A DNA stretch of 64,000 bases from Macrostomum lignano (lineage: Eukaryota): positions 96,805 to 160,804 of the forward strand of contig NIVC01002574.1 in the NCBI GenBank assembly GCA_002269645.1. Reading direction: 5' to 3'. Shown here piece by piece: positions 46,700-64,000 of this stretch (position 1 is the first letter of the stretch; each line of letters begins with the position of its first letter). The position numbers and the translations under genes are program-made. The notes beneath the pieces were generated by a model. It was not told the origin of the DNA and ran no database searches. It saw only the letters and a program-made list of their open reading frames with translations.

Positions 46700-47008
46700 A
46701 GTAGTATAGAAATAGACGCTTCTAGACCCAGAGCACTTTTTTAATGACCGTTTTAAGGGTCTAGAGGGGGGACACGGGGGGTAAATAAAAAAACACATCT
46801 AAACACCATTAATACATCTAATCACCCATAATCACCCCTAACAATAAAAATCACTTCCCAACACTTCCAAAACACTCCCCAACACTCCCCTCGCGTCCCC
46901 CCTCTTAAGACCTTACAAACGGTCATTAAAATAAGGTCTGATCTAGAAGCGTCTTTTTCTATACTACTACTCTATAACCCCTTGCCCGCGCCGCAGGCGC
47001 GAAGGGTC
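46700..47008 (+). repeat. Left terminal inverted repeat (about 309 bp) with an internal foldback
   Basis: 46981-47008 is the exact reverse complement of 63973-64000; starts AGTAGT. Full TIR length is inferred. Confidence 0.8.
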
Positions 47009-47025
47009 TTTTTCTGTTACTAAAA

Positions 47026-47340
47026 ATGACCCGAGTTTACACCTTTTCTGTTAGTGATACTTTTGAGACTGTTGCTAAAAATGCAGAGATAATAAAACAA
47101 CATATTTTGAATGGAATAATTGATGAAGTTTATTTAAAATATGACGACAAGCACGACCTAAAACTTTATCCATTAGAGCTAGATGAGATGTATGATTTAG
47201 AACAAGAGGGTGAGTTAATATTTCAACTTGGAGATTATTTAAATTCGGATGATTGGGAGGTTAGATCAACAGATTCCGAATCAACAAATAGTTCATATGA
47301 AACCAGTGATTCAGAGAATGAAAGTGAAATTTTTATGTGA
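47026..47340 (+). CDS. Polinton hypothetical protein, 104 aa, acidic C-terminus
   Basis: Open ORF with TAAAA-ATG start; family not recognised. Confidence 0.6.
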   Translation: MTRVYTFSVSDTFETVAKNAEIIKQHILNGIIDEVYLKYDDKHDLKLYPLELDEMYDLEQEGELIFQLGDYLNSDDWEVRSTDSESTNSSYETSDSENESEIFM

Positions 47341-47356
47341 AAAAAATATTTAAAAA

Positions 47357-47611
47357 ATGAACTATTATTCTATAACAGAAACGACATTTATTGTGAAAAA
47401 TATATATAAAAAAATGAAGGTAAATCGAACCCATGGTTCGCGTGCTTTGCACGATTACTCCTACATCGGAAATGTGCCGATTAATGAACTTAATGAAAAT
47501 TTAAGTTTGATAACAGTTGAACAAATGTCAATAATAATATTAGTAACAATTATAGTAATAATATTGTTTTTGTTTGTTATAAAAAATTTACTACCATGTT
47601 GTCTCAAGTAA
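47357..47611 (+). CDS. Small membrane protein, 84 aa, C-terminal hydrophobic helix followed by PCC
   Basis: IIILVTIIVIILFLFVI; carries an in-frame 30-bp hairpin insertion. Confidence 0.55.
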   Translation: MNYYSITETTFIVKNIYKKMKVNRTHGSRALHDYSYIGNVPINELNENLSLITVEQMSIIILVTIIVIILFLFVIKNLLPCCLK

Positions 47612-47621
47612 TTGTTCGAAC

Positions 47622-49229
47622 TTAGTTCGCTGATATTAGTTGGTTCTCATAAAACGAACCCAATATTTCTTCACCGTCCTTATCAGCAATTATATAGGTT
47701 GTAGGATTGGTATTTAAAACTTTACTGATAGTAAATTTCTCACTTATCTTCCAATATCCTTTTCTTCCTTTTTCAAACTTATCTTTCCATTTATAGATAT
47801 AAACAGAATCACCAACCTTAAAAGATTTCTTTTTATTTTTTTCAAATTTTCCAAAAGTAACTTTAACGTTTTCAGGATTGTTATAAGCTTGTTGAGGAGT
47901 CATCTTTATCGCCGAATGATATGAATTGTTATAATCTTTCACTACGTCTGGTAATATTTTTACCCATTTTTGGTTACCATTAAGACTAAACTGAAACCAT
48001 AATTTCTTACCTAAAGTTCTATTAAATCTTTCTATTAATGCGTTTTTACTCTCTCCATAAATAGAATAAATTTTATTAATATACTCCCCATTCGCGTCTT
48101 TTTTCCTTTCTTCTCCTTTTTCAAAATGATATAATTTATACATATGAGGATTGTAAAATTCTTTTCCTTCGTCAACACACAACCTTTCACTTTTTTCTCC
48201 AAGACTTCTAAAAGCAGCAGCAACCTCCTCTCCCTTTTTGGATTTTAAAGGAACAGCCCACGCGTATCGAGTAAAACCATCTAATATGGTTAAGATATAT
48301 TTATATCCTCTTTCGTTCGGCATCGACATTAAATCAGCATACCAAATTTCATTCTTTTTGAAGTTCATGATTTTTCTATAAAATTTCGGTTTTCGATATT
48401 CTTTATGAAGAATCTTTGCCTCATCAGAACTTAACCCACCACCACTTAACAACAAACACTCAACACAATTATTTCCATGTTGATTATAATTAATTCCCAA
48501 ACCAAATTTAACTTTAGACTGCAAGATCTTTTTAACCATCCACCTAGTTAATCTTTGCCCTACCGATAATCCCTGCAAGTTATCTAATCCTTGAATCATT
48601 TTTTGATCGGCTTCGTGTTTTAATCTTAGCGCTTCCTCGGGCGGGTTCTTATCAGCATCTCTGTATGCTAAGTCATGATAGTATGCCAACCAATCAATTC
48701 CATTTATGGGAATTGAATCGGCTTTTGGAGTGTCATCAGGATTTAATCTCAAATCTAAGCGAGTGCCGGGTAGTTTACCCCCAATCTTTCGAAAGAGGCT
48801 GGAGCACACCTTAAGCGGCGATAATTACCGCCCATCTCCGTCTGCTCTCTGAACCTTCTCCTTATATTTAAAATACTTAGGAGCTTGGCTGCGCATTGCC
48901 ACCGTGTCTTCAAGCTTTTTACCATCGAACCATAGGTTCGCGTGCAAAGCACGATTGGGAAGAGGAGTTACCTCTGTTCCTTCAAAAGATTTCTCAATTG
49001 AAGTGGTACTTGAAGCTGTATGACGGGTTTCACGCAATTTGGAGATGTCGCCACAAATAGTGACTAGCAAGGACATTGCCTTCCTCACTCAGGCCACGGG
49101 TTAACCTGTGAAGTTCATTGATGGTAGGTGTAGTTCCCCTGTATATTTACCAGTAGTAAAGATTGGTGGTAAGCTTGTTAATCCTTTTTGAACATCTAAA
49201 AATCCTCCTTCAAATACTATTTGGTTCAT
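47622..49229 (-). CDS. PLA2 (parvovirus VP1u-like)-integrase fusion, 424 aa after splicing; exon 1 49229-49104, exon 2 48770-47622
   Basis: TAAAA-ATG at 49229. Spliced junction GELHLPSMNFTG|PGTRLD, catalytic YYHDLAY and EADQ; rve triad WYADL / CVDEG / IERFNRTL; Polinton-type C-terminus FKVGDSVYI..FYENQL. Confidence 0.9.
48771..49103 (-). ncRNA. Group I self-splicing intron, IC1-like, 333 nt, no internal nuclease
   Basis: P1 U.G wobble (exon CAGGU with IGS GCCUG); P3 CAUCUCC/GGAGAUG; P AAAUUGCGUGAAA; Q AAUGCGCAGCCAAG; R GUUCAGAGAGCAGACGG; S AAGGUGUGCUCC; P7 G(A)GAGCA/UGCUCC; P8 and P9 hairpins. Removal restores the ORF and the GPG motif. Last base is A, not G. Confidence 0.88.
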
Positions 49230-49713
49230 TTTTAATGTTTAAAAAACATGTTTCTATCAATTTAATAATTTCTAAATATTGGCCACCATATAAAAAATTT
49301 AAAGCAAATTCCCCAGTTAACAAGGTAACTCCATTATCAAATACTTTTTGTACGGGGTTTTTAGTAGTATTATTAATGCAAATATAATATAAATCAAATT
49401 CGGGATTAACATATTTAAATTCTAATAACTTTTGAATATTTCTAAATCGACTTGATGAATTATCTGTGTTATCAGAAGATTTTAACTCTAACGCAACTTT
49501 TCTTTCTGTATGAATTAAATCAATTTTATTTACTTTTTCAAAACCAAAATGTTTAATAGCTAATAATTCATAAAGAGATCCAAGTCTCATTTGTATTGTT
49601 TTAATATGGTTTGAAATTATTAATTCATCTTGAAATATTTTATTTAGTATTCTGTCAGAACCAACTTTATCACAAATAGGCTTACAAAGGTGGTCTTTTA
49701 TTGTTTCATCCAT
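49210..49713 (-). CDS. PD-(D/E)xK nuclease, Eco47II/Sau96I restriction endonuclease-like, 167 aa
   Basis: KTIQMRLGSLYE, IDL..KVALELK, NTDNSSS resemble the Eco47II family pattern (from memory; needs an HMM search). Confidence 0.7.
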   Translation of the reverse strand: MDETIKDHLCKPICDKVGSDRILNKIFQDELIISNHIKTIQMRLGSLYELLAIKHFGFEKVNKIDLIHTERKVALELKSSDNTDNSSSRFRNIQKLLEFKYVNPEFDLYYICINNTTKNPVQKVFDNGVTLLTGEFALNFLYGGQYLEIIKLIETCFLNIKNEPNSI

Positions 49714-49740
49714 TTTATAAAAAATAAATTTAACAATTAA

Positions 49741-50424
49741 TTAAACACCAGTATGTCCAGCAGCTTTCGCAGCAGCTAAAACAAGTTTTCTAGGAGTTTT
49801 AAATCCATCACCAACAGCTGGTTTGTTATTTATAGAATTAACAATCCATTTATACAAGCTGGTATTTTTAACAGCTCCTCCTAAATCATCATAAAAAATT
49901 CTAGCACTTACTAAATCATTCTTAGTATAAAAATCAGGGTTAAACTTAACCCTAGGGTTAGTAATAATTCTATATGCTCCGCCCAATTCTCTATATAGTT
50001 CATTTCGATCTTTATCAACGTTACCAATTCGGTAATTATTATTACCTAAATCTGTCACAGCAATACTAGCTGGTACTCTTGGAAATTGTTTAACTTCTTC
50101 ACCCCTTTCTGCAGCCCTAATCTCTGCACGTCTAATCTCTGCAACTCTCAATTGAGCTTGATCAACATCATAAGCAGGCGGCTCATCCAAAATTTCATCC
50201 TCTTTTGGCTCAGTATTTGTAGCAATTTTTTCCAGAAGATCTTTATCTGTTTTTTCTAGTTCACTAATTTTCCCAGTAATAGGATTAACAAAAGGAGCAG
50301 CAAATCTTTCGCCAGCTAATTGTATTCCTAACTTTCTTTTTTGTAAATTTCTAACAAAATCAGAATATCTTTGCTTCTCTTTATAAATCGCTAACTCTCC
50401 ATCAACGTCCATAAATTGACTCAT
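49741..50424 (-). CDS. Polinton hypothetical protein, 227 aa
   Basis: Intact ORF, TAAAAA-ATG start, divergent from the capsid gene. Confidence 0.65.
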   Translation of the reverse strand: MSQFMDVDGELAIYKEKQRYSDFVRNLQKRKLGIQLAGERFAAPFVNPITGKISELEKTDKDLLEKIATNTEPKEDEILDEPPAYDVDQAQLRVAEIRRAEIRAAERGEEVKQFPRVPASIAVTDLGNNNYRIGNVDKDRNELYRELGGAYRIITNPRVKFNPDFYTKNDLVSARIFYDDLGGAVKNTSLYKWIVNSINNKPAVGDGFKTPRKLVLAAAKAAGHTGV

Positions 50425-50458
50425 TTTTTAACATAAAAAACTTTTTTAACTTAAAAAA

Positions 50459-51931
50459 ATGGCTGAAACAAAAACTATGTGGAGTGATAAATTTCATTTC
50501 AAAAAGCACCGACAGTATATTAATGAGGTCAGAGCAAGAGATTTAAATTATACCCTACCAACAAGTGATAATTCAAATAACTTTACTACTGGAACGGTAA
50601 CTTTTGACATCGGCGCAACCAACACTATATTGGATATGAAAAATGCGTTTTTCCGCGTTAGATGGTTGTATACTAGAAATGATGGAACTGCTCTTGCAGC
50701 CGGAGATATCGCAGATCGATCCGGAATAATAATAGAAAATGATTGGTTTTATAAATGTTTTTCCCAAGCTCAACTAACTGTTAATGGTGCTGAGGTTGAG
50801 ACATCATCAAACCCCGCAGAGATTAATGGAGTTTTGAAACATTTAAATTATACTTATTTATCAAAACAAGTTGGTGATAATGTTGGGTGGATGCCGGATA
50901 AAGGTAACGGTCAAGCAGTAGTTTTCCCTAATGTACAAAACGCAGCCGGTGCAGATACTGCAGCGCTAATTGTTTACCTTAATACAAACATAGTTCCAGT
51001 TGTAACCACTATGACTAATACAAAAGATATTAATACTGGTTTTATAGATCGTCAGAATAAATTCCCAGTCGCGGTTTTAACCACAGCAACAGCATATGAG
51101 CAGGACTTTTCAATCTTTCCACTATTTGGGTTTTTCTCACCAAATCGGGTATGGAAAGGATTAAAATTTGGGATACAGTTGCAAATATCTGGTGGATATC
51201 AGCCTAGGATACTTTATGGAACCTCAATTTCAACCGATATAGCAGTTCGTATAGATTCAATTCAATTAGTCGTACCAACTATTGAGGTAACAGCCCCACT
51301 TTTAAAACACATCGATAATCAGTTAACGCATGATCAGGAAATATTTTATTTGAATCGTCGACATTTTATGCGAACCATTAATAATAACCAGGATTCATTC
51401 CAGTGGCAAATACTGACATCAAAACGTCGGGTGAGATATATTTTTGTTTGGTTTAAGATAACAAATAGAAGGAGTAAAAGAGCAAATGGGGATTTATATT
51501 GGCTTCAATCCGGTGCCATAGCAGAACAAGCAGCCACCGCAACAGACAATGCGGCTGCAGCTATTAACGAGTTTAATGTTCAGAATATCCGCCTGCAGGT
51601 TGATGATCAATATTATCCGGTTAAAGACCCCCTAAATTTAAATATAGCAAATAATAATGTTAATGATTTTATAAAATATTATCAAGATTATGCCAAAAAT
51701 GAAGCGTATGCCGTCCCTCAGTACACACCCACAGAGTTTCTAAACATTCATCCAGTGGTTGTTTATGATCTAACGGCACAGAAAGAAAACGTAGCCAATA
51801 TTGGACTTAATTATATGTTAGAGATTAATAAAACTGGTAATCAGGCAATAGACGCACACGTATTGTTTCTAGAGGAATATATGTCAATTGCTAAAGCTGA
51901 TGGCACGATTGTTCGGGACGCGCCACTTTAG
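50459..51931 (+). CDS. Major capsid protein (double jelly-roll, Polinton PY-like), 490 aa
   Basis: Size, beta-rich pattern (TVTFDI..LDMKNAFFRV, FSQAQLTVNGAEVE, HPVVVYDLT, AHVLFLEE) and position before ATPase, penton and protease. Confidence 0.8.
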   Translation: MAETKTMWSDKFHFKKHRQYINEVRARDLNYTLPTSDNSNNFTTGTVTFDIGATNTILDMKNAFFRVRWLYTRNDGTALAAGDIADRSGIIIENDWFYKCFSQAQLTVNGAEVETSSNPAEINGVLKHLNYTYLSKQVGDNVGWMPDKGNGQAVVFPNVQNAAGADTAALIVYLNTNIVPVVTTMTNTKDINTGFIDRQNKFPVAVLTTATAYEQDFSIFPLFGFFSPNRVWKGLKFGIQLQISGGYQPRILYGTSISTDIAVRIDSIQLVVPTIEVTAPLLKHIDNQLTHDQEIFYLNRRHFMRTINNNQDSFQWQILTSKRRVRYIFVWFKITNRRSKRANGDLYWLQSGAIAEQAATATDNAAAAINEFNVQNIRLQVDDQYYPVKDPLNLNIANNNVNDFIKYYQDYAKNEAYAVPQYTPTEFLNIHPVVVYDLTAQKENVANIGLNYMLEINKTGNQAIDAHVLFLEEYMSIAKADGTIVRDAPL

Positions 51932-52015
51932 TGTCGCAGTGCAAAGCACGTCGCGCCATTGTAAAATGAGTGCAGGTCTCCGACCGTCGCGCCTATTTAA
52001 ATTATTTCTTTAAAA

Positions 52016-52809
52016 ATGGTAAAGGCAAAACACAATAAAATATTTCCAAATGATCCTTTTCTTTGTTTAGTAATCGGAGGATCAGGTAAAGGAAAAACAC
52101 ACTTTGTTACGATTTATTAACAACAGATGGAATGTTAGACTATAATAATTTAATAATTTATACTAATAAACCTAGAATAAAATATTATGAATTTCTTAAA
52201 CATGGATTAAAAAACAAATTAAAAAAAGATGTCTTGTTTAGAATGTTAAGAGCATATGAGCAATATGAGGATGATGACGAACCGCGATTTAATCTAGCAG
52301 ACATTGAGGATTTATGTAAAACAATGGCACAACAGCCAGAAAACATCACCGATCGCCCCGAAGGGTCGCGGACTTCGTCCGATCGAGCCCCAACAATTAC
52401 AATATCAAACCGATTAACTTATGACAAAATTCCAAAAAATGATAAAACACTAATTATATTTGATGATTGTATTAATGACGGAGATCAAGAATTGCAAAAG
52501 GAAATTTTTGTTAGTGGTAGAGGAGATGGAATTGGAGCTTTTTATCTTACTCAATCCTTTAGAGAATTAGAATCGATTATAAAAAAGAATGCTAGCTGTT
52601 GTGTAATGTTTGATTTAGATAACTATGATCTACAAAATATTCACGCGAGATTTAATCCTGGGTTGGATACAAAACCATTTAAAAGTATGTGTAAAAAAAT
52701 TTGGGATGATAGCCAATACAAACATATTTATATCAATCCGAGGTTAGAAAGGAAACATAGAATTTTAACAAATTTGATAAAAGAAGATAATGAGGAAGAA
52801 GAGACATAG
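52016..52809 (+). CDS. A32/FtsK-like packaging ATPase, 1-bp frameshift near 52108
   Basis: Walker A GGSGKGKT from ATG 52016, Walker B LIIFDD, FYLTQS and IIKKNA motifs. Confidence 0.85.
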
Positions 52810-52829
52810 CACAATTTCCCACTATAAAA

Positions 52830-53628
52830 ATGACTACAAATTTAGATACTATAAAACAATTGGTAGATCGAACTAATTCAAAATTTAGTACAACCTTACA
52901 GTTTATAATGACAACCAGTGAACAACGTATTCAATTGCGCGACCCGTTACAACTTGATCAAAGCCTAAGTTATCAAATAGGTTTGATACTATTTTCGGTT
53001 TTTAACATGCCTCAATTAATTAATGCAACAAATAATCAATTTAGATATTCTAAAGATTCCGGAGCCAATTGGACAACATTTAGCGTTAACCCAGGAGCGT
53101 ATAGCTATACTGATTTGAATGCTTATATAGAATGCTTATATAGAAGGAGAATTAACATCTAACGGCGATTGGGTATCAGGCGCAATTGTTATAGGTGTTG
53201 ATTTACCATCTGGCAGATTCACACTATCACTAGGATCCGGATATCAGGTTGATTTCACAATTGCAAATTCACTCAGAACCATACTTGGATTTAATTCTCG
53301 AATAGTTACCACATCAAGCACCGGCGATACAGTTGGAAATATTGAGGGTGGTGTTAATACAATTAATATAACAACCGACATATCAAACGGCGGTTATATA
53401 ACAGATAATAATGGAGTTTTGGTTCAACGTGGAATTATTTATTCCATCCCATTTCTTGCTGTTCCAATTGGAGAGAAAATGATTGTATCACCTCAAACCC
53501 CAATATATTACCCATTAAATCAATATAATGTTCAATCAATTTATATTAGGATTGTAGATGAAACCGATAGATTAATAAGTTTTGGTGGGCAATCAATAAC
53601 AGTAATTTTACGTATAAAACAGGTTTAG
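52830..53628 (+). pseudogene. Minor capsid protein (penton) disrupted by a 13-bp tandem duplication GAATGCTTATATA near 53117-53142
   Basis: Removing one copy joins the two ORFs; C-terminus IIYSIP..PIGEKMIVSP..IYYPL..IYIRIVDETDRLISFGG is penton-like. Confidence 0.8.
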
Positions 53629-53672
53629 CCGAACCAAAGGTTCGAGGACATCGTCCGTTTCCCATAGTAAAA

Positions 53673-53882
53673 ATGGGTAATCGAACAACATGTTCGCGTG
53701 CAAAGCACGATAATAATAATAATTTACTAAAAAAACAATCAGAAAAAGTTAAAAAAGCTGAAGATAATTACGAACTAGAACTAGCAAAATTAAGGCAGTT
53801 ACAAGCTGATAAAATAAGAAAGGAATTGTTAAAACCCACACCTACGAAACTAACTAAAACCAAGAGTTTTTCAGGAACATAA
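53673..53882 (+). CDS. Small basic protein, 69 aa, possible N-myristoylation (MG)
   Basis: TAAAA-ATG start; in-frame hairpin insertion. Confidence 0.45.
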   Translation: MGNRTTCSRAKHDNNNNLLKKQSEKVKKAEDNYELELAKLRQLQADKIRKELLKPTPTKLTKTKSFSGT

Positions 53883-53883
53883 A

Positions 53884-54327
53884 ATGACCATGACGTGGGA
53901 TGATTTTAAACAAAGATATGGAACAGACACAACAAGCAATATCGAATTAACAAATTGGGCGCGGCAGTTAAAAATAAAACCATTCAGATGTGTGATGCGG
54001 GATGAGATAAAAGACTTACCACAATATGGATCTTACATTGTCAACATCGAAACTACAAAAGAAAACGGGGCTCATTGGTCGGCAGTTTATTCCAAACCTA
54101 AACTTGTTTATTTTTTTGATTCATACGCGCTTCCTCCGTTACAGGAAATAAAAGATAAATTTAATCATACTAAAAATCGTTTATGTGGAGATCATCACGA
54201 ACAGTTTCAAACCTTTGATAAAAGTTATTGCGGACAAGCAGCGTTATATTTTTTATATCGACTTTCGAATGAAGCTCGTGTAAACCACAAAGTATTTAAG
54301 ACTATCATGCAAAGCATGCGAACCTAA
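53884..54327 (+). CDS. Adenain-like cysteine maturation protease, 147 aa
   Basis: GAHW (His), FFDSY (Asp), QFQ (Gln), YCG (Cys). Confidence 0.9.
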   Translation: MTMTWDDFKQRYGTDTTSNIELTNWARQLKIKPFRCVMRDEIKDLPQYGSYIVNIETTKENGAHWSAVYSKPKLVYFFDSYALPPLQEIKDKFNHTKNRLCGDHHEQFQTFDKSYCGQAALYFLYRLSNEARVNHKVFKTIMQSMRT

Positions 54328-54364
54328 GGTTCGATTTTAGACTCTATAAAATAGACAGTAAAAA

Positions 54365-56236
54365 ATGATATTTTCTGGAACACCCTCATGGAACGGAACA
54401 ACAAGTACTGGTGGTGGTACGTCTGGTGGAATAAGTGTTACCTTCGGAGATAATCGATATATTAATGAAGATGAAGGTTATAAAAAAAGTGAAGTTGATA
54501 CTAAACTAAATTTGAAACGGAATGTTGCAGATTCCTATACCAAAACTGAAATCGATACTTCATTAAATCTTAAAAGAGATATTAGCGATTCATATACAAA
54601 ATCAGAGGTTGACACTGGGTTAAATTTAAAAAGAGATATAACTGATTCTTATTCTCGAACTGATTCTGATTCGCGTTATGTTCAAGCCACCGCAACCGGA
54701 ACTTTAGATATGGATAACAATCGAATTATAAATGTTGCAATTACAACGAATAACTCGGTAGTTGATAAGAACTATGTCGATAATCAGGTTGGTAGTCGTA
54801 ACGGCAATATCAATATGAATAATTTTAAATTAACAAATTTATTATTTGGAACAGAGGCCACAGACTCGGTCAATTTAGGGCAGGTCAACGCTCGAGCTAA
54901 TGTAACCGACGCCGATATTTTTGCCACGCCGCTTACATCAAATACTTCAAATCCAGATGTTGTTCTTACAGCATCCGAAAATACCAACGATGCTTTTCGA
55001 GTTGGAGATGGAAGCCTTGCGACACAATGGTCACCAAATACCGGAACCACAACCAATATGGAAATTCAATTTGAATTTTTAGGTTATAATCGAAGAATAA
55101 ATGAATTAAGAATCACAGGCAGCGCAACTATTGATATTCCATCGGGATGGTCGGTTCGTGCAAAAAATGTTGCTACCGATGCATGGACGGTATTACGAAC
55201 GTCGGGATCACCAATTCAAGCAACTTCATTTGCGTTAACTAATTTAACGGTTAATTTTTGGAAATATTATAGCGTTTTATTCCCAACTGGTGGCACCGCT
55301 ACACAACCTATCGAGGTTCGTCTAATACAATTATTTGAACACCGAGTTGAAATTCAAGATCTTAATTGGCCAAATGAAATACTATCTGCTACCCCGCGAG
55401 CGTACGTAGATCAGGTAGCAACTCCAACTTCAAATGGTAGAATGTCTGCCGGTGATAAAAATAAATTGGATAATATTCCCGCGATTGATGCCGCATTATT
55501 CGAGCCAGTAATTTGTAATTGGACTGGATATCAAAATCCAACAACCGCTGGAGATATATATCCAGTTGGTTCTTTAATTGGCGACGCTTCTTATATCGAT
55601 TATCAAAATGGAGCTAGAATTACTCGTGAAACTGGTGGAGTAAGTGGGGCATTACAATTCAATTTCACACATTTTCAAAATATATCTGCGTCTTTCTATT
55701 TCCGAGTCGCTAATTCTACAGGAGATGGTGCAGATGCGGTTTGGTTTTATGCATATTGTCACGAACGCCCAACAAGTGAAGGTGGGACTGGATTAACAAC
55801 CGACGCCGGATTGATAGTTTTTGCAAGTGAGTGGCATGATAAATTTGGCGTTGTATGGAGTAATAAAAAATCAGACGGATCAAGCCGCGCGGATGTTAAT
55901 ACTGACGCAGATCAAACGGTAGATTATGCAAATATTGATAACGGCGATTGGCATTTATTTGAAATTAATATTTTAAATCAAAGGGTTTGGTATCAATTAA
56001 ATTCATACAATGTTTCGGCCGATTCTTATACCCTCATTGGGCAGAACGTTTTCACATATGATAGTGGCACTTGGGGAACGTTGGATAAGACTGGAACCCT
56101 TATGGGTTTTGGTGCTCGAACTGGAGGATCGGATGCTGCACATTTTATTCGTGGCGCTGGCGTTTGTGGTAGCACATCGTTTGGTTATGTTTTTCCCTCT
56201 ACTGCTTATTTGGAAAAACCTCCTACTCAAATATAA
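54365..56236 (+). CDS. Fibre/receptor-binding-like protein, 623 aa
   Basis: SYTKxEVDT repeats, NMNNFKLTNL and MSAGDKNKLDNI fibre motifs, discoidin-like segment, C-terminal L-type lectin-like GDGADAVWF..GFGARTGG..H. Confidence 0.7.
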   Translation: MIFSGTPSWNGTTSTGGGTSGGISVTFGDNRYINEDEGYKKSEVDTKLNLKRNVADSYTKTEIDTSLNLKRDISDSYTKSEVDTGLNLKRDITDSYSRTDSDSRYVQATATGTLDMDNNRIINVAITTNNSVVDKNYVDNQVGSRNGNINMNNFKLTNLLFGTEATDSVNLGQVNARANVTDADIFATPLTSNTSNPDVVLTASENTNDAFRVGDGSLATQWSPNTGTTTNMEIQFEFLGYNRRINELRITGSATIDIPSGWSVRAKNVATDAWTVLRTSGSPIQATSFALTNLTVNFWKYYSVLFPTGGTATQPIEVRLIQLFEHRVEIQDLNWPNEILSATPRAYVDQVATPTSNGRMSAGDKNKLDNIPAIDAALFEPVICNWTGYQNPTTAGDIYPVGSLIGDASYIDYQNGARITRETGGVSGALQFNFTHFQNISASFYFRVANSTGDGADAVWFYAYCHERPTSEGGTGLTTDAGLIVFASEWHDKFGVVWSNKKSDGSSRADVNTDADQTVDYANIDNGDWHLFEINILNQRVWYQLNSYNVSADSYTLIGQNVFTYDSGTWGTLDKTGTLMGFGARTGGSDAAHFIRGAGVCGSTSFGYVFPSTAYLEKPPTQI

Positions 56237-56252
56237 AATATTTCTATATAAA

Positions 56253-56552
56253 ATGGCTTTTAGTAGAACTCCATCGATGCGGCAAAATAATGTTATTATT
56301 CCTATTCCTAAACAAGAATCAAATATAAAAACATTCAAATCTCATACCAAATTTTTATTTAGTACTGTAAATGTTCAGGATAATAAGAAGCTTCAAGAAT
56401 TAATTAAGTTATTAAAAAATCATATTATACTTCAAGAGTTTTGGAAAATTGGATTTAAATGGGAGAAAAAAGAAAGAATCACTCCAATACAATACCTATT
56501 AAGCTCCGGGCAAATACCAAAGAGCGTGGGGAATTCATTTTGGTGCTATTAA
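56253..56552 (+). CDS. Hypothetical protein, 99 aa (ATG at 56253)
   Basis: TATAAA-ATG start within the listed ORF. Confidence 0.5.
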   Translation: MAFSRTPSMRQNNVIIPIPKQESNIKTFKSHTKFLFSTVNVQDNKKLQELIKLLKNHIILQEFWKIGFKWEKKERITPIQYLLSSGQIPKSVGNSFWCY

Positions 56553-56564
56553 AAATAGACGAGA

Positions 56565-57204
56565 ATGTCGGTATCTGAAGCAGATAAATGGGAACGCGAC
56601 CGGTTCAACCAACGTAAAGGTCACATGTTAAGTAATGTTGATCGAATAAATTATGATTATGATTTATATAGTAAAAAAGTAAGAAGAGTTTCAAACCATA
56701 TAAGAAATATGGACTTTTTCAATATTGGATTTGGAAGCTTATCAATGTTATGTGTAATCGTTTTAGGTATTTTACAATCTATTCCAACTCTTAATTTATC
56801 TCAATTATTTTTAGGTATTTCAATTGGGTCAATATCAGGTTTTGAATTGATCAGGAACTTATCAATACTTTTAGCAATTAAATTATATCTTAAAAAAAGA
56901 AAGGAAAAATATAAATCATTAAGAGATGTTGCCAAGCAATATAAAAATCAATTATATTTATATGTGCAAAAAAATATTGGATGACGGAGAGATAACGATT
57001 CATGAATTATCAACCGCGGTTGAATTATATGAAAAATATTTAAAAGATAGAAATAGAATTTTAGATGTTGAAACTTTTACCGATATGGAATTAAAAGAAT
57101 TACGTTTGGACAAACCCAAAGCTCCACCTATAGAAACATTAGGTATTTACGAACCTGAAACTATTGCTACTGGGCACAAAGCCCGCGGTCAGGAAGTGCT
57201 GTAG
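56565..57204 (+). CDS. Two-TM Polinton accessory protein, frameshifted in an A-run near 56970
   Basis: Two hydrophobic helices, then KEKYKSL..LDDGEIT..YEKY pattern. Confidence 0.6.
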
Positions 57205-57238
57205 AACTTAATGTTGTTTAATTTATTTAATGCATATG

Positions 57239-57700
57239 TTATATATTCTTCCCAAAGTGGTAACTCTCTTCTGATCTAGGTTTAAATTTTTTATCAATAC
57301 ATAAAAATTCCAATGACTTTTTCAATAACATTTCGTTAGGTATGTTACCTATCCTTATAAACTTTGTATTCTCTCGAATAAGAAAATTGAAATAATATCC
57401 AACTAAAATTAAAATCCTTTCAGAGTCTTTCGAACTTAATCCCTTTCCTTTATTTAAATGGAAAAAGTTATTATATAAATAAACATTATTTCCGGGAATT
57501 AAAATTGGATCAGAAATGTCTCTTGTAAGATTTCTTAAAATTGTGTTTTTAAAATAGTAATATGAGTTTTCAATCTTTTTTGTTTTTTCAAATTGATATA
57601 TTTTAGAACATGAATAACACATATGATATATATCTCCGTTTGCTGTTTGCCCTCTGTGCATAGTCACATTACATTTATTACAAACATAAATGTCTTTCAT
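57239..57700 (-). CDS. Hypothetical protein, 153 aa, N-terminal CxxC..CxxC zinc ribbon
   Basis: CNKC and CYSC. Confidence 0.55.
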   Translation of the reverse strand: MKDIYVCNKCNVTMHRGQTANGDIYHMCYSCSKIYQFEKTKKIENSYYYFKNTILRNLTRDISDPILIPGNNVYLYNNFFHLNKGKGLSSKDSERILILVGYYFNFLIRENTKFIRIGNIPNEMLLKKSLEFLCIDKKFKPRSEESYHFGKNI

Positions 57701-57726
57701 TTTTTTGTTATTTTTTTAGATTAAAA

Positions 57727-58054
57727 ATGGAGAGCTGGTTCAAAACCGATTCTAATGTGATTAATTATCTCACACCCAATATGTTGGAGAATAAAGAATA
57801 TAATATTGTATGTTTGAGACAGGTTAAATTTATTGGACTTCAATCATATTTTTACAATTAGATGGGCAAAAAATTTTATGTCTAAGCGGAGATGATGTTA
57901 AAAATTTTCCTGTTTTAGTTATTAATAAACCTAAAGCGTTTGTTATGAAATACAGCAACGAGGGTGGATTGCAATTTAAACTAAAACAAACAAATAATAA
58001 AAAGAGTGATAGGACTGTAAAATTGGCGGCTGTTTGGGAGGATGACCGAATAAG
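57727..58054 (+). CDS. Probable small frameshifted ORF (MESWFKTDSN...)
   Basis: TAAAA-ATG start; continuous only with indels. Confidence 0.3.
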
Positions 58055-58073
58055 TTAAATTTTTTATAAGAAA

Positions 58074-58412
58074 ATGGATACGATAAAAATCCTTATCACT
58101 AAAGAGCGTGAACTTAATGATATTAATAAAAAAATAAATATAATTATATCTCAGAAATATCATGAGTATGGGGACGATATGTTTCCCATCCGATATGAGA
58201 TAGATAAAAGAAAACGTTTTTTAAGACAAGATATTGTTTATGCTGAAATAGTAATTGAAATTGAAATAGATAGATTGGTTAGAAAAATAAAAAAACTTAG
58301 GAAAAAAATAAAGGATTGTTTAAGTTACCCTGCCGACTGTGAGGATAATTGGTGCTCAATAATATATGAAATTGAAATGTTAATGATTTGCTCAAACAAT
58401 TACATGCTTTAG
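58074..58412 (+). CDS. Hypothetical protein, 112 aa
   Basis: Intact ORF. Confidence 0.5.
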   Translation: MDTIKILITKERELNDINKKINIIISQKYHEYGDDMFPIRYEIDKRKRFLRQDIVYAEIVIEIEIDRLVRKIKKLRKKIKDCLSYPADCEDNWCSIIYEIEMLMICSNNYML

Positions 58413-58538
58413 TTTTTTACAGACCGATAAGTAATTTTTCTGTTAATCTCTTCCAGTTATTCAAGACTTTTTCCTTATTTAATTTTTTAAGTTCTTTTGG
58501 AAATGTTGAATAATAATTATCTATATCTTTTTCATATT

Positions 58539-61500
58539 CTAGAAATGTATTATATTCACAATCACATTCGATTCACAATCACAATCGTAATAATAATTAT
58601 TTATTGCCGCTTTGTATTCATTATATTTGCTTATTATATCTTCTTTTTGTTTTTTATCTTTTATCATATTTTTTATCTCTTCTTTTAAACCATATGGATA
58701 TGTTTTAATTTTATCATCTAAATACTTTTATCATCAAATGGACTTAATGTTTTTTTATCTGTCTCGATGACAAACATCTGATGCTTATCTGAATTTAATC
58801 GATATTGTGGAGCATGATAATTTTCAATTGTATTAAGGTAATCTAAAAGTACGTTTTTATAATCATCAAATGTTATCTTTTTTACTGCTGCTCTTGATAC
58901 CCCTTTTATTTTTTTTACCTCTCCCTCCTGTCCTAAAACCTTAAATGCATAGCATTTTGATCTTATTGCTATAAACTCGGTTATGATTTTGCTATTTAAT
59001 TCATCTTTCATTTTAAGTACAACTTTTTTATTTTGATCTGATTTTAAAGGATGGTTATCCGGATAGTCGGAGGTATCCAATGTATCCTTAATTTTTTCCA
59101 TATCTTTATAGACATCGAACCTTTGGTTCGCGGACTCCGTCCGTCATCTGTTTCAACCTTAAATACCAAACTGTCGGTGTCTGCATATATTGGATAGTTA
59201 TCTGGCCATGTTTTATTTATAACATCATAATAATATTCATACATTACCAGCTTTGCATAATCTAAAACAACCATTCCAATAAATATTGGTTTAAGAAATT
59301 TTGTTGTTTTATTTCTCATATGAATACCCATAAAGTTATCATCAAATTTTATAAAGTCTTTAAAGTTAGGTTTTGAGAAATATTTCTTTGCTTTATCAAT
59401 ATCCTTTTCTAAATGGAATTGGGTTCTATCTCTAATATTTTCAACCGTTTTTCCATAAAAAGCATTATTCATTAATTTCCAATAATCTTTCTCAAAATTT
59501 GTTTTTGACATCTGTCTCTGATTTGAATTAAAGTCAATATATTTAGCTAACCAATCTTCCTCAATAAACGATATTGTTCGATGTACTTTAGACACTTTTA
59601 ATCCCTGCTTTTTCATAAAATTGTAGAAGCTTATAATGCACTACATAGTTTTTCTTATCATGTAAATTTAATATTAATTTTTTTGTTGCTAGATGTTTTG
59701 CATTATCTACTTTAAGATAATCTTTTTGTGTTTGTGATAAATCATCTTCATTAACTGAACAATGCTCTGGAGCTAAAGGATATTTATATGTTTTTGCTTT
59801 TGCTTCCCGAGTATATTGCAAATCCACTTCTACGATACAGCCCCTTCCTTCGGGAATATTTTTGTAATAATCGGGGTCATCTTCCCATTGGAAATCAGCT
59901 ATTGGTAATTTTTGTTTCATACAACCACCGTATAAATTGTTTGCATCTAGATATAATACATATGATGATTTTTCTTTTTTATTATAATTTGGTAGATATT
60001 TATTATTTACTTTAGTATATCTATCTCCTAGTACACCCGAGAATCCGCCGCGAATTCCTCTCTCAATCATTAACAACATATCATGATCAGTTAGTAAATC
60101 AATCTTAACATCTGTATGTTTCAAACCACAAGCCCATGTTAATCCGGTGCACTGAAACAATATGCGGGATCAATTTTAAAATTCTCATATGTATGATTCC
60201 TAAAGTTTTCAAATGCATCAGCTAATAGGAGAACATCTGCTTTAAGATATAGATTATGATAATCTTTAAATGTTTTACAATTAAAGTATTTCCATACTTT
60301 TTGAGCGTGTTCATAATCCGATTCACTTATGTTTGTTTGTGATAATGTTGAATAAAACTTTTCAATTGGGGGTAATTCGGTATGAAAAAATACGTCTTCA
60401 GATGTTACATATTCATATGGGTAGATGCCCTTACGAGTTAATAGCATTAGTTCTTCCTCGGATAGTTTTTCTTTTTGAAACGATTCAATAGATTGGAAAG
60501 TTTTTTTTACTATTTCTAAATCCCATGGTTTTGGAACTAATGATGAAACAACATTTGCTAAAGATGTTGATAAGAATCTCAAGGAATCTAGAAAAACTAG
60601 ATGGGAGTATTTCTTACCATATGTTATTGATATGTAATTTTCTGATGTTTTAGGTAATATATTTATTTCATATTCATCCTTTCCTAAATGAAGCAATTCT
60701 CGAACTAAGAAATGAAAATCATATCCGGAACCATTATGAAAAAATACTGGTATTTCCTTACATCCTTTTCCTTCTTTTGCATTACATGATCTACATGCTG
60801 CCCCTCGATAATTTCCTGTTAGATGACAATGTTCTCGTATCTTATTATTCTTACTTAAATGTCTTTTGCACATAAAACAATTTGTTGCATTTTTATAATT
60901 GTCTCTATCCTTATTTGTCATATTAATATTTTTTGATAATTTATCATATTGATTTTGAATATATTCAAATACATTTACTAATGATTCTGCCATGTGCTTA
61001 GCTGCATCATTACCGTGGTAAGTAATCATCCTTGATTTAAATATATGATCAGCTACGAGTGTACATATATACAATAACTATTCGGAAACTGTTGTGCCAA
61101 TTTTTTTGTGCATTCACCGTCATCAGATACCGTCTGTGATTCTTTTAAGGGAACATTTGTTGCTTCAAAATCAGCATATATTACTATTGGTTTTTTAACT
61201 GCCATATAATGTTGTTGGAACTTTAGGGTTGCATCTTCAGATGCTGGCATTATAGCATTAGTAAATTTGTGATCTAAACAAAATCGTTGATGATTTTTAA
61301 GAGCTGTTTCATCCTTTTTAAATGTAAACAATTTCTACATAGTGGATATCTATTTCTATTTTCTCTTAAAAAGAACTAATATCTTTTATGTATATATAAT
61401 GTGTTTCATTTTCGCGCTGCATGTACAAAAGATCGATTTGATCTGGTGCTGTTATATCAGTTGCTGGCTTAACAAGATAACAGTTTTCTTATACCATTCT

Positions 61501-62354
61501 GGATCGACTTGAATTTCTTCTAGATCTTTGGTTCTTCAATTGTAAACACATTAATATTTAAACCATTCATTTTTTCAATCTTATATATATCATCTATTGC
61601 TACTGGGTATGATATGTTTTTCATTATTATTTCATCCTCATATTGTCTATAATTATATATTTTATTAATGTGTGATTCTACTTGATTGTGATATTTATGA
61701 ATTAATAAACACCATAATAAACATTTATTATCTTTATTGTCTGGATTTATAATCATAGGTGATTTAAATTTGAGCTTCATATGTGATCGTCCTTTAAGAA
61801 TTTCTATGGTGCAATCTTTACTATTGCTGAATTACAGGATACAAATATAAACCCAGATCCGTTTTCTGTCATCTTATCTATCCATTCATCAAACTCAGCT
61901 TCTATTTGATCGAATTGATTGTTGTAATTTCCCATTGATAAATGTTTTATATGATTCTTGTGAAAAGTTATTTATTACTTCAATTTCTGAATTTGCATTA
62001 AGAATATTTGGTTTTTTAAATTCTGTTTCAACTTCTATTTTATACTTAATTGGCTGTCGTTTGTTATTTGGCCTTATAGTATAATTGTTTAATATGGTCT
62101 TTAATTTATCTTTCATTTGTTTAAAATATTCTTTATAATTTGTATTTATATCTATATCTATATATATTACTTCAGCTCCATTTTGTCCTTGTGGTTGGGG
62201 GTTATTAATATCATTTAATTGTCTTTCTAAACGTATCTCATTTTCTGCCCTAATTCTTGCTTCTATTTCAGCCCTATCTTCGTTGTGCATCGATTTGAGC
62301 TATTAATTGTGCTCTAAGTTCAGGGTTGTCGATTTGAGCTAAAATTGCTTCCAT
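58539..62354 (-). pseudogene. polB: Protein-primed family B DNA polymerase split by many small indels
   Basis: IYADFEA (ExoI), EHCHLTGNYRGAAC (endonuclease VII-like insert), FHNGSGYDFH (ExoII), YLKADV (ExoIII), YLDANNLYG, KLMNNAFYGK, YADTDS; ends approximate. Confidence 0.9.
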
Positions 62355-62399
62355 TTTATAGAATAAATTTATATAATGTATTTGAATTATTGATTTTTT

Positions 62400-63760
62400 A
62401 ATTTGCGTTTTTGGTGTCCAGACCCTCCCCCCAGGAGCCTATTCGAGATCTGCTTTTGGTAATAGCAATCCATTGCCCATAACGTTTGAATTTAAGAAAA
62501 TTCCTGAACCTGCTTTTGGTCTCATTTCGAGATATAATCCGCTTCCGTCGTGTTTTTCAATGATGTTAAAATCTTTTCCTAATTATAAAAATCTTTCTGA
62601 ACTGCTGGCTAAAATTGGATCCAATATTGTCAAAAAATCCTTTAGCTTTCTCACCCGTTTTTTCTAAAGTTTGACCAAATTCATGTAGTTTATCTGCGAC
62701 AACTCCACTTCCTTGGGTTGTTCCTTTTAGTACCAAACCATGCCATTTAAAGTAAACCTTTTCCTGCTAACCTAGCTTCTGCATTTCTTTTTTGCTCTGC
62801 TGTTGCTGAACTACTATTAATGGTGTATCATAAGTTTTCTGTTTGAATTGTGCGTCCTGCGTTATTTGCTGTCTTTGAAATTCGCCTCTCTTTAGCTTTT
62901 TCATCCGCAGCTTTTTCATTTACTGCTTTTGTGAATTCCAGCTGCGCCCCGCATCCACTCCAGCTGCTCCAATTCCTGCAAAAATTATTGGGAGCAAAGC
63001 TTGCAAGGCAAGATTCCCCTGTTTTGCTTAATCTCCTAGCTGTTTTCATTATCATGAATTCTTTTCCGGCTAAACCGACTGCTCCAGCTGCCCAGTCCTA
63101 AAAGAAGGTAGAATGGGTAAATCCGCCGTCCTTTTTAGTGTGAGTCTCCATAAAAATTTTACATCGGAGTCTGTCAACCTATAATTTCTGCCGCGATTCT
63201 TAAAGGATATTGGCCTTCCTTCTTGTGCATATTTTGCTGCGAGTTTAAATGTATCGATGTCGTAGTCAAACTTTTTACCTAATCGATCCAATCTTTTTAA
63301 CATTGTGTGGCTATGTTTATTATCATCTAGATCTAAAGTATCTACAATTTCTCCTATAAAATATAAGCGGTCGTTATCTGTGTCCATTTTTATATTGTTA
63401 AAATTTTTTAATCCTTTTCCGCCTTTAATTGTGTTAACATTTTATTAAAATCCTGAATATCTTTATTACTTATTGGCGTGCTTTTCGTGGGGGTTTCTGT
63501 TGGTTGTGCGGCTTGTGCCAGCTTTAAATCTTTTATTGCATTTATTTGTGAGAGGGTGTCGTTAAATCTCTCAATTTCTTTAGTTCTTCTGCCGCTCTAG
63601 CTGCTTCAATTCCTCCTTTTACAGCATTTGTTATAGAACCTGCTGCAGAGCCAGCTTGCCCTATAAGCCCATATTGTCTTTAACGAAAATTTGCTGCTGT
63701 TCCAACCACATCAAAAAGCCCCTCACCTCGGTATTCAACTGGTCTCCTACCTGCAATTCA
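62400..63760 (-). other. Cluster of frameshifted small Gly/Ala-rich Polinton ORFs (putative core or membrane-active proteins), including intact 63070-63387
   Basis: LLPIIFAGIGAAG..TKAVNEK, GEGLFDVV, GSGLYL, GSGIFL across frames. Confidence 0.45.
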
Positions 63761-63972
63761 TTCAGATTTTGCATATGTGTAACGTGTGTCATTTTTTGTT
63801 CTATTTTTAGTAACAGAAAAAGATTGTCTGCATTCCATTTAGACCAGATTTTAGACCAAATTTTGAAAACGAAAAACCAAAACGATAGTCTAGTTTTGTT
63901 TGGTCTAAAATCTGTCTAAATGGAATGTTGGGTGGGTAGGTTGAGCTGACTATAAATAGCTTCTATCTTTCC

Positions 63973-64000
63973 GACCCTTCGCGCCTGCGGCGCGGGCAAG
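63973..64000 (-). repeat. Inner start of right TIR (truncated by window end)
   Basis: GACCCTTCGCGCCTGCGGCGCGGGCAAG is the reverse complement of 46981-47008. Confidence 0.85.

Follow-up and report, generated by a model that had tools for sequence, protein, structure and literature searches.

A free-standing Eco47II-like nuclease gene adjoining a group I intron in a GGNCC-free Maverick/Polinton element of Macrostomum lignano

Introduction

Long, rare sites are the defining trait of homing nucleases, and a protecting methylase that of restriction enzymes, with PacI as a methylase-free precedent. The nuclear genomes of animals are not known to contain group I introns. Among the type IIP restriction enzymes with a GGNCC core, EcoO109I cuts RG^GNCCY and AvaII cuts G^GWCC, and residues N167, T168, N170 and S171 of AvaII are described as readers of G:C pairs (PMC7337904). 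The GGNCC specificity of Eco47II homologs has been stated "without certainty" (PMC10305163). Restriction-modification (R-M) pairs have been suggested for Polinton-like viruses (PLVs) and reported in marseilleviruses (PMC7253447).

Here, we describe a locus in a 64,000-nt stretch of Macrostomum lignano DNA (NCBI GenBank assembly GCA_002269645.1, contig NIVC01002574.1, positions 96,805 to 160,804; hereafter, the window), in which a first-pass annotation made from the letters alone had picked out an orphan restriction-endonuclease-like gene. We propose, with a probability of roughly two in three, that the product of this gene is a type IIP restriction enzyme of giant-virus origin turned short-site homing nuclease, whose carrier would protect itself by site loss and an intron. 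Our literature search, which covered main texts in mostly open journals, returned no report of this nuclease-intron combination. The features of the locus are collected in Table 1.

Table 1. Features of the locus, in window coordinates.
Feature	Position	Strand	Remark
Maverick/Polinton element, 17.3 kb, 0 GGNCC	46700..64000		Right end just beyond the window
3' exon: rest of the phospholipase A2 (PLA2)-like domain from the Pro codon, fused to rve integrase	47622..48770	minus
Group I intron, ORF-less, 333 nt	48771..49103	minus	Rfam RF00028
Double-hairpin insert, about 30 nt, inside the intron P5 extension	48924..48955
PLA2-integrase gene, 5' exon of 42 codons, last codon Gly	49104..49229	minus	Read directly
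Endonuclease gene, free-standing, Eco47II/EcoO109I/AvaII-like PD-(D/E)xK, 167 aa	49210..49713	minus
490-aa ORF	50459..51931	plus	No significant Pfam match
A32-like packaging ATPase	52132..52809	plus	Weak match, E 0.005
Protein-primed DNA polymerase region, 7 frames	58718..62299	minus	PF03175, E 2.5e-06

Results

The nuclease gene lies in an AT-rich element that starts at position 46700 and has the terminal inverted repeats, rve integrase, protein-primed DNA polymerase B and A32-like ATPase (the last a weak match) of a Maverick/Polinton. The 490-aa ORF is presumably the major capsid protein, given its size and the gene order. The 227-aa ORF between it and the nuclease gene (49741-50424) matched no Pfam or PHROG family. 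Phage tail-fibre-like matches were obtained for a 623-aa ORF (54365-56236), and an Endonuclease VII-like domain was detected in the polymerase piece at 60139-61077 (E 1.3e-07). This copy of the element is partly decayed. The host flank contains MAP1B-like, p62-like (PB1-ZZ-UBA), bHLH and kinase frames.

Several hairpins were observed in the element. The left terminal repeat (46700-46968) is in itself a 270-nt imperfect palindrome. The right terminal repeat region contains a strong hairpin (63829-63929) that has no counterpart in the left arm; it drew weak miRNA-family matches, of which the hairpin alone is probably the cause. A shorter hairpin, CGAACC-NNN-GGTTCG, occurs in six copies (at 47424, 48924, 53628, 53680, 54319 and 59114), none of them in the host flank, and five of the six have a second hairpin of varying sequence beside them. 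One copy is the intron insert, one is located at a polymerase frame change and one at the end of a putative protease ORF. These repeats look like a tiny mobile double-hairpin element.

The intact 167-aa ORF and its three motifs (IDL..ELK, NTDNSSS and KTIQMRLG), pointed out in the first-pass annotation, are all present on the minus strand. The size of the product fits that of tail-less relatives (160-175 aa), and the start context of the gene is A-rich, as in the other genes of the element. The ORF had also been contrasted with many frameshifted neighbours. That is accurate for the polymerase (seven frames) and a putative minor capsid region (two to three), but the immediate neighbours of the nuclease gene are open too, so its intactness is weak evidence of selection.

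The family to which the nuclease had been assigned from sequence patterns, Eco47II/Sau96I with a GGNCC site, was assessed by profile and by fold. PF09553 (Eco47II) was the best family match (E 0.0022), but its 18.1 bits do not reach the gathering score of 25.9. This cut-off was passed by one of nine close homologs and, at 38-43 bits, by homologs linked to methyltransferases (MTases), and 108 of 115 aligned homologs matched the family at E<=0.01. We therefore file the nuclease as Eco47II-like, outside PF09553 membership. A search of NCBIfam returned no family, one of PHROGs only weak matches of unknown function, and a single-sequence PDB search nothing useful.

An AF2 model of the nuclease (pLDDT 94.7) has a restriction-enzyme fold. 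EcoO109I (RGGNCCY) was the best structure in both fold searches (E 7.4e-4, TM 0.69; Z 10.0, rmsd 3.6, 164 aligned). The next structure in the Z-ranked search had a Z of 7.2, and AvaII ranked 17th there (Z 5.9); in Foldseek, AvaII was the next restriction enzyme after EcoO109I. In the viral fold library, even the best hit to the model (TM 0.53) was not a clear match. With the core fold, a catalytic D and the (D/E)xK motif, the protein belongs to the PD-(D/E)xK superfamily.

Alignment and fold comparison identify E49, D65, E76 and K78 as the catalytic residues, and N82-T83-x-N85-S86 as the base-reading loop. D65 is conserved in 113, E76 in 110 and K78 in 114 of the 115 aligned homologs, and both catalytic and base-reading residues are intact in the window protein and conserved. 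In a non-significant PDB profile match (E 0.27), D147 and K163 of AvaII align with D65 and K78. In the same sub-significant alignment (E 0.27), AvaII N167/T168/N170/S171 align with N82/T83/N85/S86, at an equal offset from the catalytic Lys. By this analogy, GGNCC is the likely site of the nuclease, and its size and modelled fold argue for a short recognition site. What survives of the original family call is the restriction fold, the Eco47II-like kinship and the likely site, with the protein below the Pfam gathering score.

The absence of a cognate MTase from the element, already noted among its ORFs in the first-pass annotation, was borne out by three kinds of search. Pfam MTase families matched none of 90 further stop-to-stop frames (>=50 aa) at E<=0.05, nor either of two other frames scanned separately. 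With a related C5 MTase as the tblastn query, none was detected in the element, the best match (E 0.27) being in host DNA, and a motif scan of the element yielded no PC motif and no DPPY-type motif. The window reaches into the right terminal repeat and includes its inner end, so these searches covered the coding part of the element. Having no cognate MTase gene, the locus is not filed as a type II R-M system. "Orphan" is apt as regards the MTase but incomplete, for a group I intron goes with the gene: it splits a GGNCC site, and it houses the nuclease genes of relatives.

This intron was identified with Rfam after homolog tails were found to resemble a small frame beside the nuclease ORF. It starts about 100 nt downstream of the nuclease gene and matches RF00028 at 60.8 bits (gathering 50, E 1.6e-13); the fast mode of Rfam did not report it. 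Helices P1, P3, P4, P7, P8 and P9.0 are fully paired and P10 is paired at four of five positions, so that a group I core (P3, P4, P7 and P8) accompanies the above-gathering match, and P1 has its U.G at 49104, the 5' splice site. The last base of the intron is A, where G is usual; on its sequence, we class it as group I by descent. P7 (48802-48847) differs from the Rfam consensus by two compensatory pairs, and the translated tail of the homolog P0002 suggests the same variant there. P0002 and P0003 do not have the 10 codons of the P5-extension insert. Phage records matched the intron only weakly, at 15% coverage.

The interrupted gene belongs to a common family of PLA2-integrase fusions. Its 5' exon, whose start overlaps the end of the nuclease gene by 20 nt, matches the N-terminal end of an intronless relative (P0162) with 72% identity over 32 aa. 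The exons are contiguous in this relative, which places the insertion point in the PLA2 loop, between a conserved Gly codon and a conserved Pro codon. Since every Gly codon followed by a Pro codon spells GGNCC, the intron splits such a site. Among 121 PLA2/integrase relatives, a Gly-Pro in the loop could be parsed in 59. Three other gene structures were rejected: the nuclease ORF is not inside the intron here, as the PLA2 5' exon lies between them, and neither a 5' exon formed by the 227-aa ORF nor an earlier 3' splice site agrees with P9.0, P10 and P0162.

Relatives link the nuclease to the same intron. There were nine close nuclease homologs (49-63% identity) among 26 candidates, and a profile search yielded 282. 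The intron core was detected in the C-terminal tails of six of 157 nuclease homologs at E<1e-5, and of eight by motif. The nuclease frames of these eight run into intron P3-P4, so that, on protein-level evidence, they are encoded inside the intron. From the other side of the insertion point, five of the 121 PLA2/integrase relatives have their first residue at the loop Pro or slightly ahead of it, and two of them start with a translated intron end. A called start codon near the Pro suggests a terminal G in the intron of three such relatives. The longest contigs of P0002 and of the PLA2/integrase relative P0163 are equal in length (4853), and the two abut in intron sequence, which suggests that they represent one locus. 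In P0168 and P0188, replacement of the loop Pro (Gly-Ala/Gly-Thr variants) is, as far as the sequences tell, another route to site loss; as automatic parsing of the loop went wrong in several rows, such variants are cited for these two only.

Distant homologs are found beside C5 MTases or fused to them. At locus L001, the nuclease gene is located between a C5 MTase gene and a nucleocytoplasmic large DNA virus (NCLDV) capsid gene, and at L002 it adjoins an MTase gene; P0027 and P0121 are nuclease-MTase fusions. The best plasmid matches of P0027 are pairs of dcm with an Eco47II-family gene. The homolog profile matched a bacterial Eco47II-family protein at 27.8 bits; the MTase of this protein shares 44-51% identity with those next to the viral homologs. 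The genome scan (27 candidate stretches) yielded three loci, all of them distant (28-36% identity), with L003 truncated at a contig edge. No phage record matched the nuclease or the integrase of the element, a piece of its polymerase, or the nuclease of L001. L001 (1-7737) and L002 (1-3912) are filed under an archaeon and a bacterium but look like giant-virus DNA; L001 carries a double C5 methyltransferase besides its NCLDV capsid gene, and GTNAC is strongly depleted in it (1 vs 20.5 expected).

A midpoint-rooted tree was built from 62 of the 157 homologs, namely the best-scoring and the MTase-linked ones, 49 of them without genomic context. The window protein nests among intron-tailed homologs (support 99/95), and the four MTase-linked homologs are separated from it by a 100/96 branch. 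With this root, the tree favours an order in which R-M came first and the intron later, and the free-standing state of the nuclease is probably derived.

The element contains no GGNCC in 17,301 nt (15.4 expected), the lowest count of all 256 NN.NN patterns. None of 200 Markov simulations of the element got down to zero, and shuffling synonymous codons with the proteins fixed gave an expectation of 5.8 (P=0.002). The 12 one-mismatch neighbours of GGNCC occur 10-36 times each. Both GGWCC and GGSCC are absent (4.6 expected for GGSCC), as are sites outside RGGNCCY (12.4 expected). The host DNA of the window does have many GGNCC sites, as claimed earlier: there are 96 in the 46.7-kb flank, and AT-rich host stretches have 17 in 11 kb. 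Other patterns were also skewed in 46700-64000: CCNGG is low (7 vs 22.3 expected), which fits no simple story, and GCNGC and CGNCG are about 2.5-fold enriched.

Avoidance was also assessed in proteins and in other loci. The element encodes no Gly-Pro (8.3 expected), and the nuclease homologs have four (26.7 expected). Outside the loop, Gly-Pro is similarly scarce in integrase relatives (2 vs 23.7 and 10 vs 57.7 expected), most of which keep the loop site, and it is absent from the 22 integrase relatives on long contigs (15.4 expected). E. coli has about half of the expected Gly-Pro and GGNCC. Since these controls are depleted as well, the Gly-Pro counts of the element and the nuclease homologs are weak evidence, and we lowered the weight given to Gly-Pro depletion as a specific sign. 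GGNCC is absent from a plasmid stretch that bears an MTase (4.6 expected), and two MTase-bearing viral-type loci retain it (4 vs 5.9 and 1 vs 2.1 expected, both small numbers). The absence of GGNCC from the element is far beyond chance and beyond the twofold background, but depletion is not unique to the element.

Discussion

We propose the following history. The ancestor would have been the type IIP enzyme of a giant-virus R-M pair that lost its MTase and was then recruited by a group I intron of Maverick/Polinton viruses as its nuclease. A dimer of the nuclease would cut GGNCC and, as AvaII and EcoO109I suggest by analogy, leave 3-nt 5' overhangs. The carrier would be immune without methylation: all dispensable GGNCC would have been lost, and the one conserved site, in the Gly-Pro codons of the PLA2 loop, would be interrupted by the intron at the DNA level and made whole by splicing in RNA only. 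An intron-free relative co-infecting the same cell would be cut at its Gly-Pro junction and at its other GGNCC, and would be either destroyed or repaired from the carrier, with the intron and the adjacent nuclease gene copied into it. The layout would have changed along the way, from a nuclease inside the intron, as in the relatives, to one free-standing just upstream, as in collaborative homing. The cutting of rival viruses that the first-pass annotation had envisaged fits such an intron-nuclease system. An active enzyme may also degrade host DNA; with 96 sites in the flank, a 5-bp cutter would be harmful in the nucleus, and its expression would need to be limited to lytic replication or shut off while the element is integrated.

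The strongest alternative, which we regard as unlikely, is a long-site homing endonuclease on a restriction scaffold, reading GGNCC plus flanking bases and cutting the PLA2 junction only, with the lack of GGNCC reflecting clade-wide avoidance of giant-virus R-M enzymes. Such an enzyme would avoid host toxicity, the junction also matches RGGNCCY, Gly-Pro is low across integrase relatives, and I-Ssp6803I, with its 17-bp site, is a precedent (PMC3424549). However, the whole 167-aa chain is aligned to the EcoO109I core, which leaves no room for an extra DNA-binding domain, and the element lacks GGNCC even outside RGGNCCY.

Less probable by about half is a restriction enzyme serving competition or degradation of host DNA, as the first-pass annotation supposed, with the intron an unrelated passenger at a conserved site. 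The nuclease gene is free-standing here and has its own start context, and giant-virus restriction enzymes have been proposed to exclude co-infecting viruses (PMC7253447). A passenger intron is, however, at odds with the eight relatives that read into the core of the same intron, with an insertion point inside the predicted site and with the overlap between the nuclease gene and the 5' exon; moreover, the Marseillevirus R-M system did not degrade host DNA (PMC7253447). Marginally less probable still, and concerning this copy rather than the system, is that nuclease and intron are dead relics whose activity lay with their ancestors: the polymerase is in seven frames, the putative minor capsid gene in pieces, and the intron ends in A and holds an insert, but the catalytic and base-reading residues are intact, the intron helices pair, and a coral group I intron is reported to splice without a terminal G (PMC6545197).

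If the short-site homing reading is right, the window nuclease looks like an intermediate between the two enzyme classes: its site would be short, and the small genome that carries it would be safe through the loss of that site. A single nuclease family is found next to an MTase, within an intron and free beside the intron, and these three states make a restriction-enzyme origin of homing nucleases testable. It would also follow that animal Mavericks co-infect cells and recombine with one another as active viruses. More tentatively, and at somewhat less than even odds, the locus may represent a methylase-free restriction system of animal Mavericks, in which a 5-bp cutter, genome-wide site erasure and an intron as obligatory antidote combine so that the pair acts as a gene drive and a weapon among co-infecting viruses; the same claim takes in a group I intron that an endogenous virus brought into an animal nuclear genome, and a traceable route by which an R-M enzyme turned into a homing nuclease.

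Compared with known systems, the window nuclease has its fold, catalytic residues and N-T-x-N-S loop in common with the Eco47II family (PF09553), AvaII and EcoO109I, but it is much shorter, scores below the gathering threshold, has no MTase, belongs to a eukaryotic virus and is tied to an intron. In its layout, a free-standing nuclease gene beside a gene with an ORF-less intron, the locus resembles the collaborative homing described for F-CphI, which likewise adjoins a gene (psbA of cyanophage S-PM2) whose ORF-less group I intron masks the target (PMC6083498). From the Gly-Pro junction, we predict that the intron-bearing allele is spared and the intronless one cut. F-CphI is encoded by a phage gene and has an Endo VII motif, whereas the window system combines a short-site restriction scaffold with a site-free genome and intron-internal relatives.

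Restriction-type folds serving group I introns, as here, are described for I-Ssp6803I (PD-(D/E)xK; PMC3424549) and I-Bth0305I (EDxHD). The former is bacterial and has a long site, and neither was among the fold matches listed for the window nuclease, which EcoO109I topped. Introns of protist PLVs also match RF00028 (309-376 bp) and interrupt a short gene that lies upstream of the one for the capsid, but, as reported, they are confined to a few protist groups, the host gene is unannotated and no nuclease is assigned to them (PMC12220804). Finally, R-M pairs of the kind reported in giant viruses and suggested for PLVs are also seen among distant homologs of the nuclease, which stand beside C5 MTases or are fused to them, whereas the window system has no MTase and is apparently protected by site loss and an intron.
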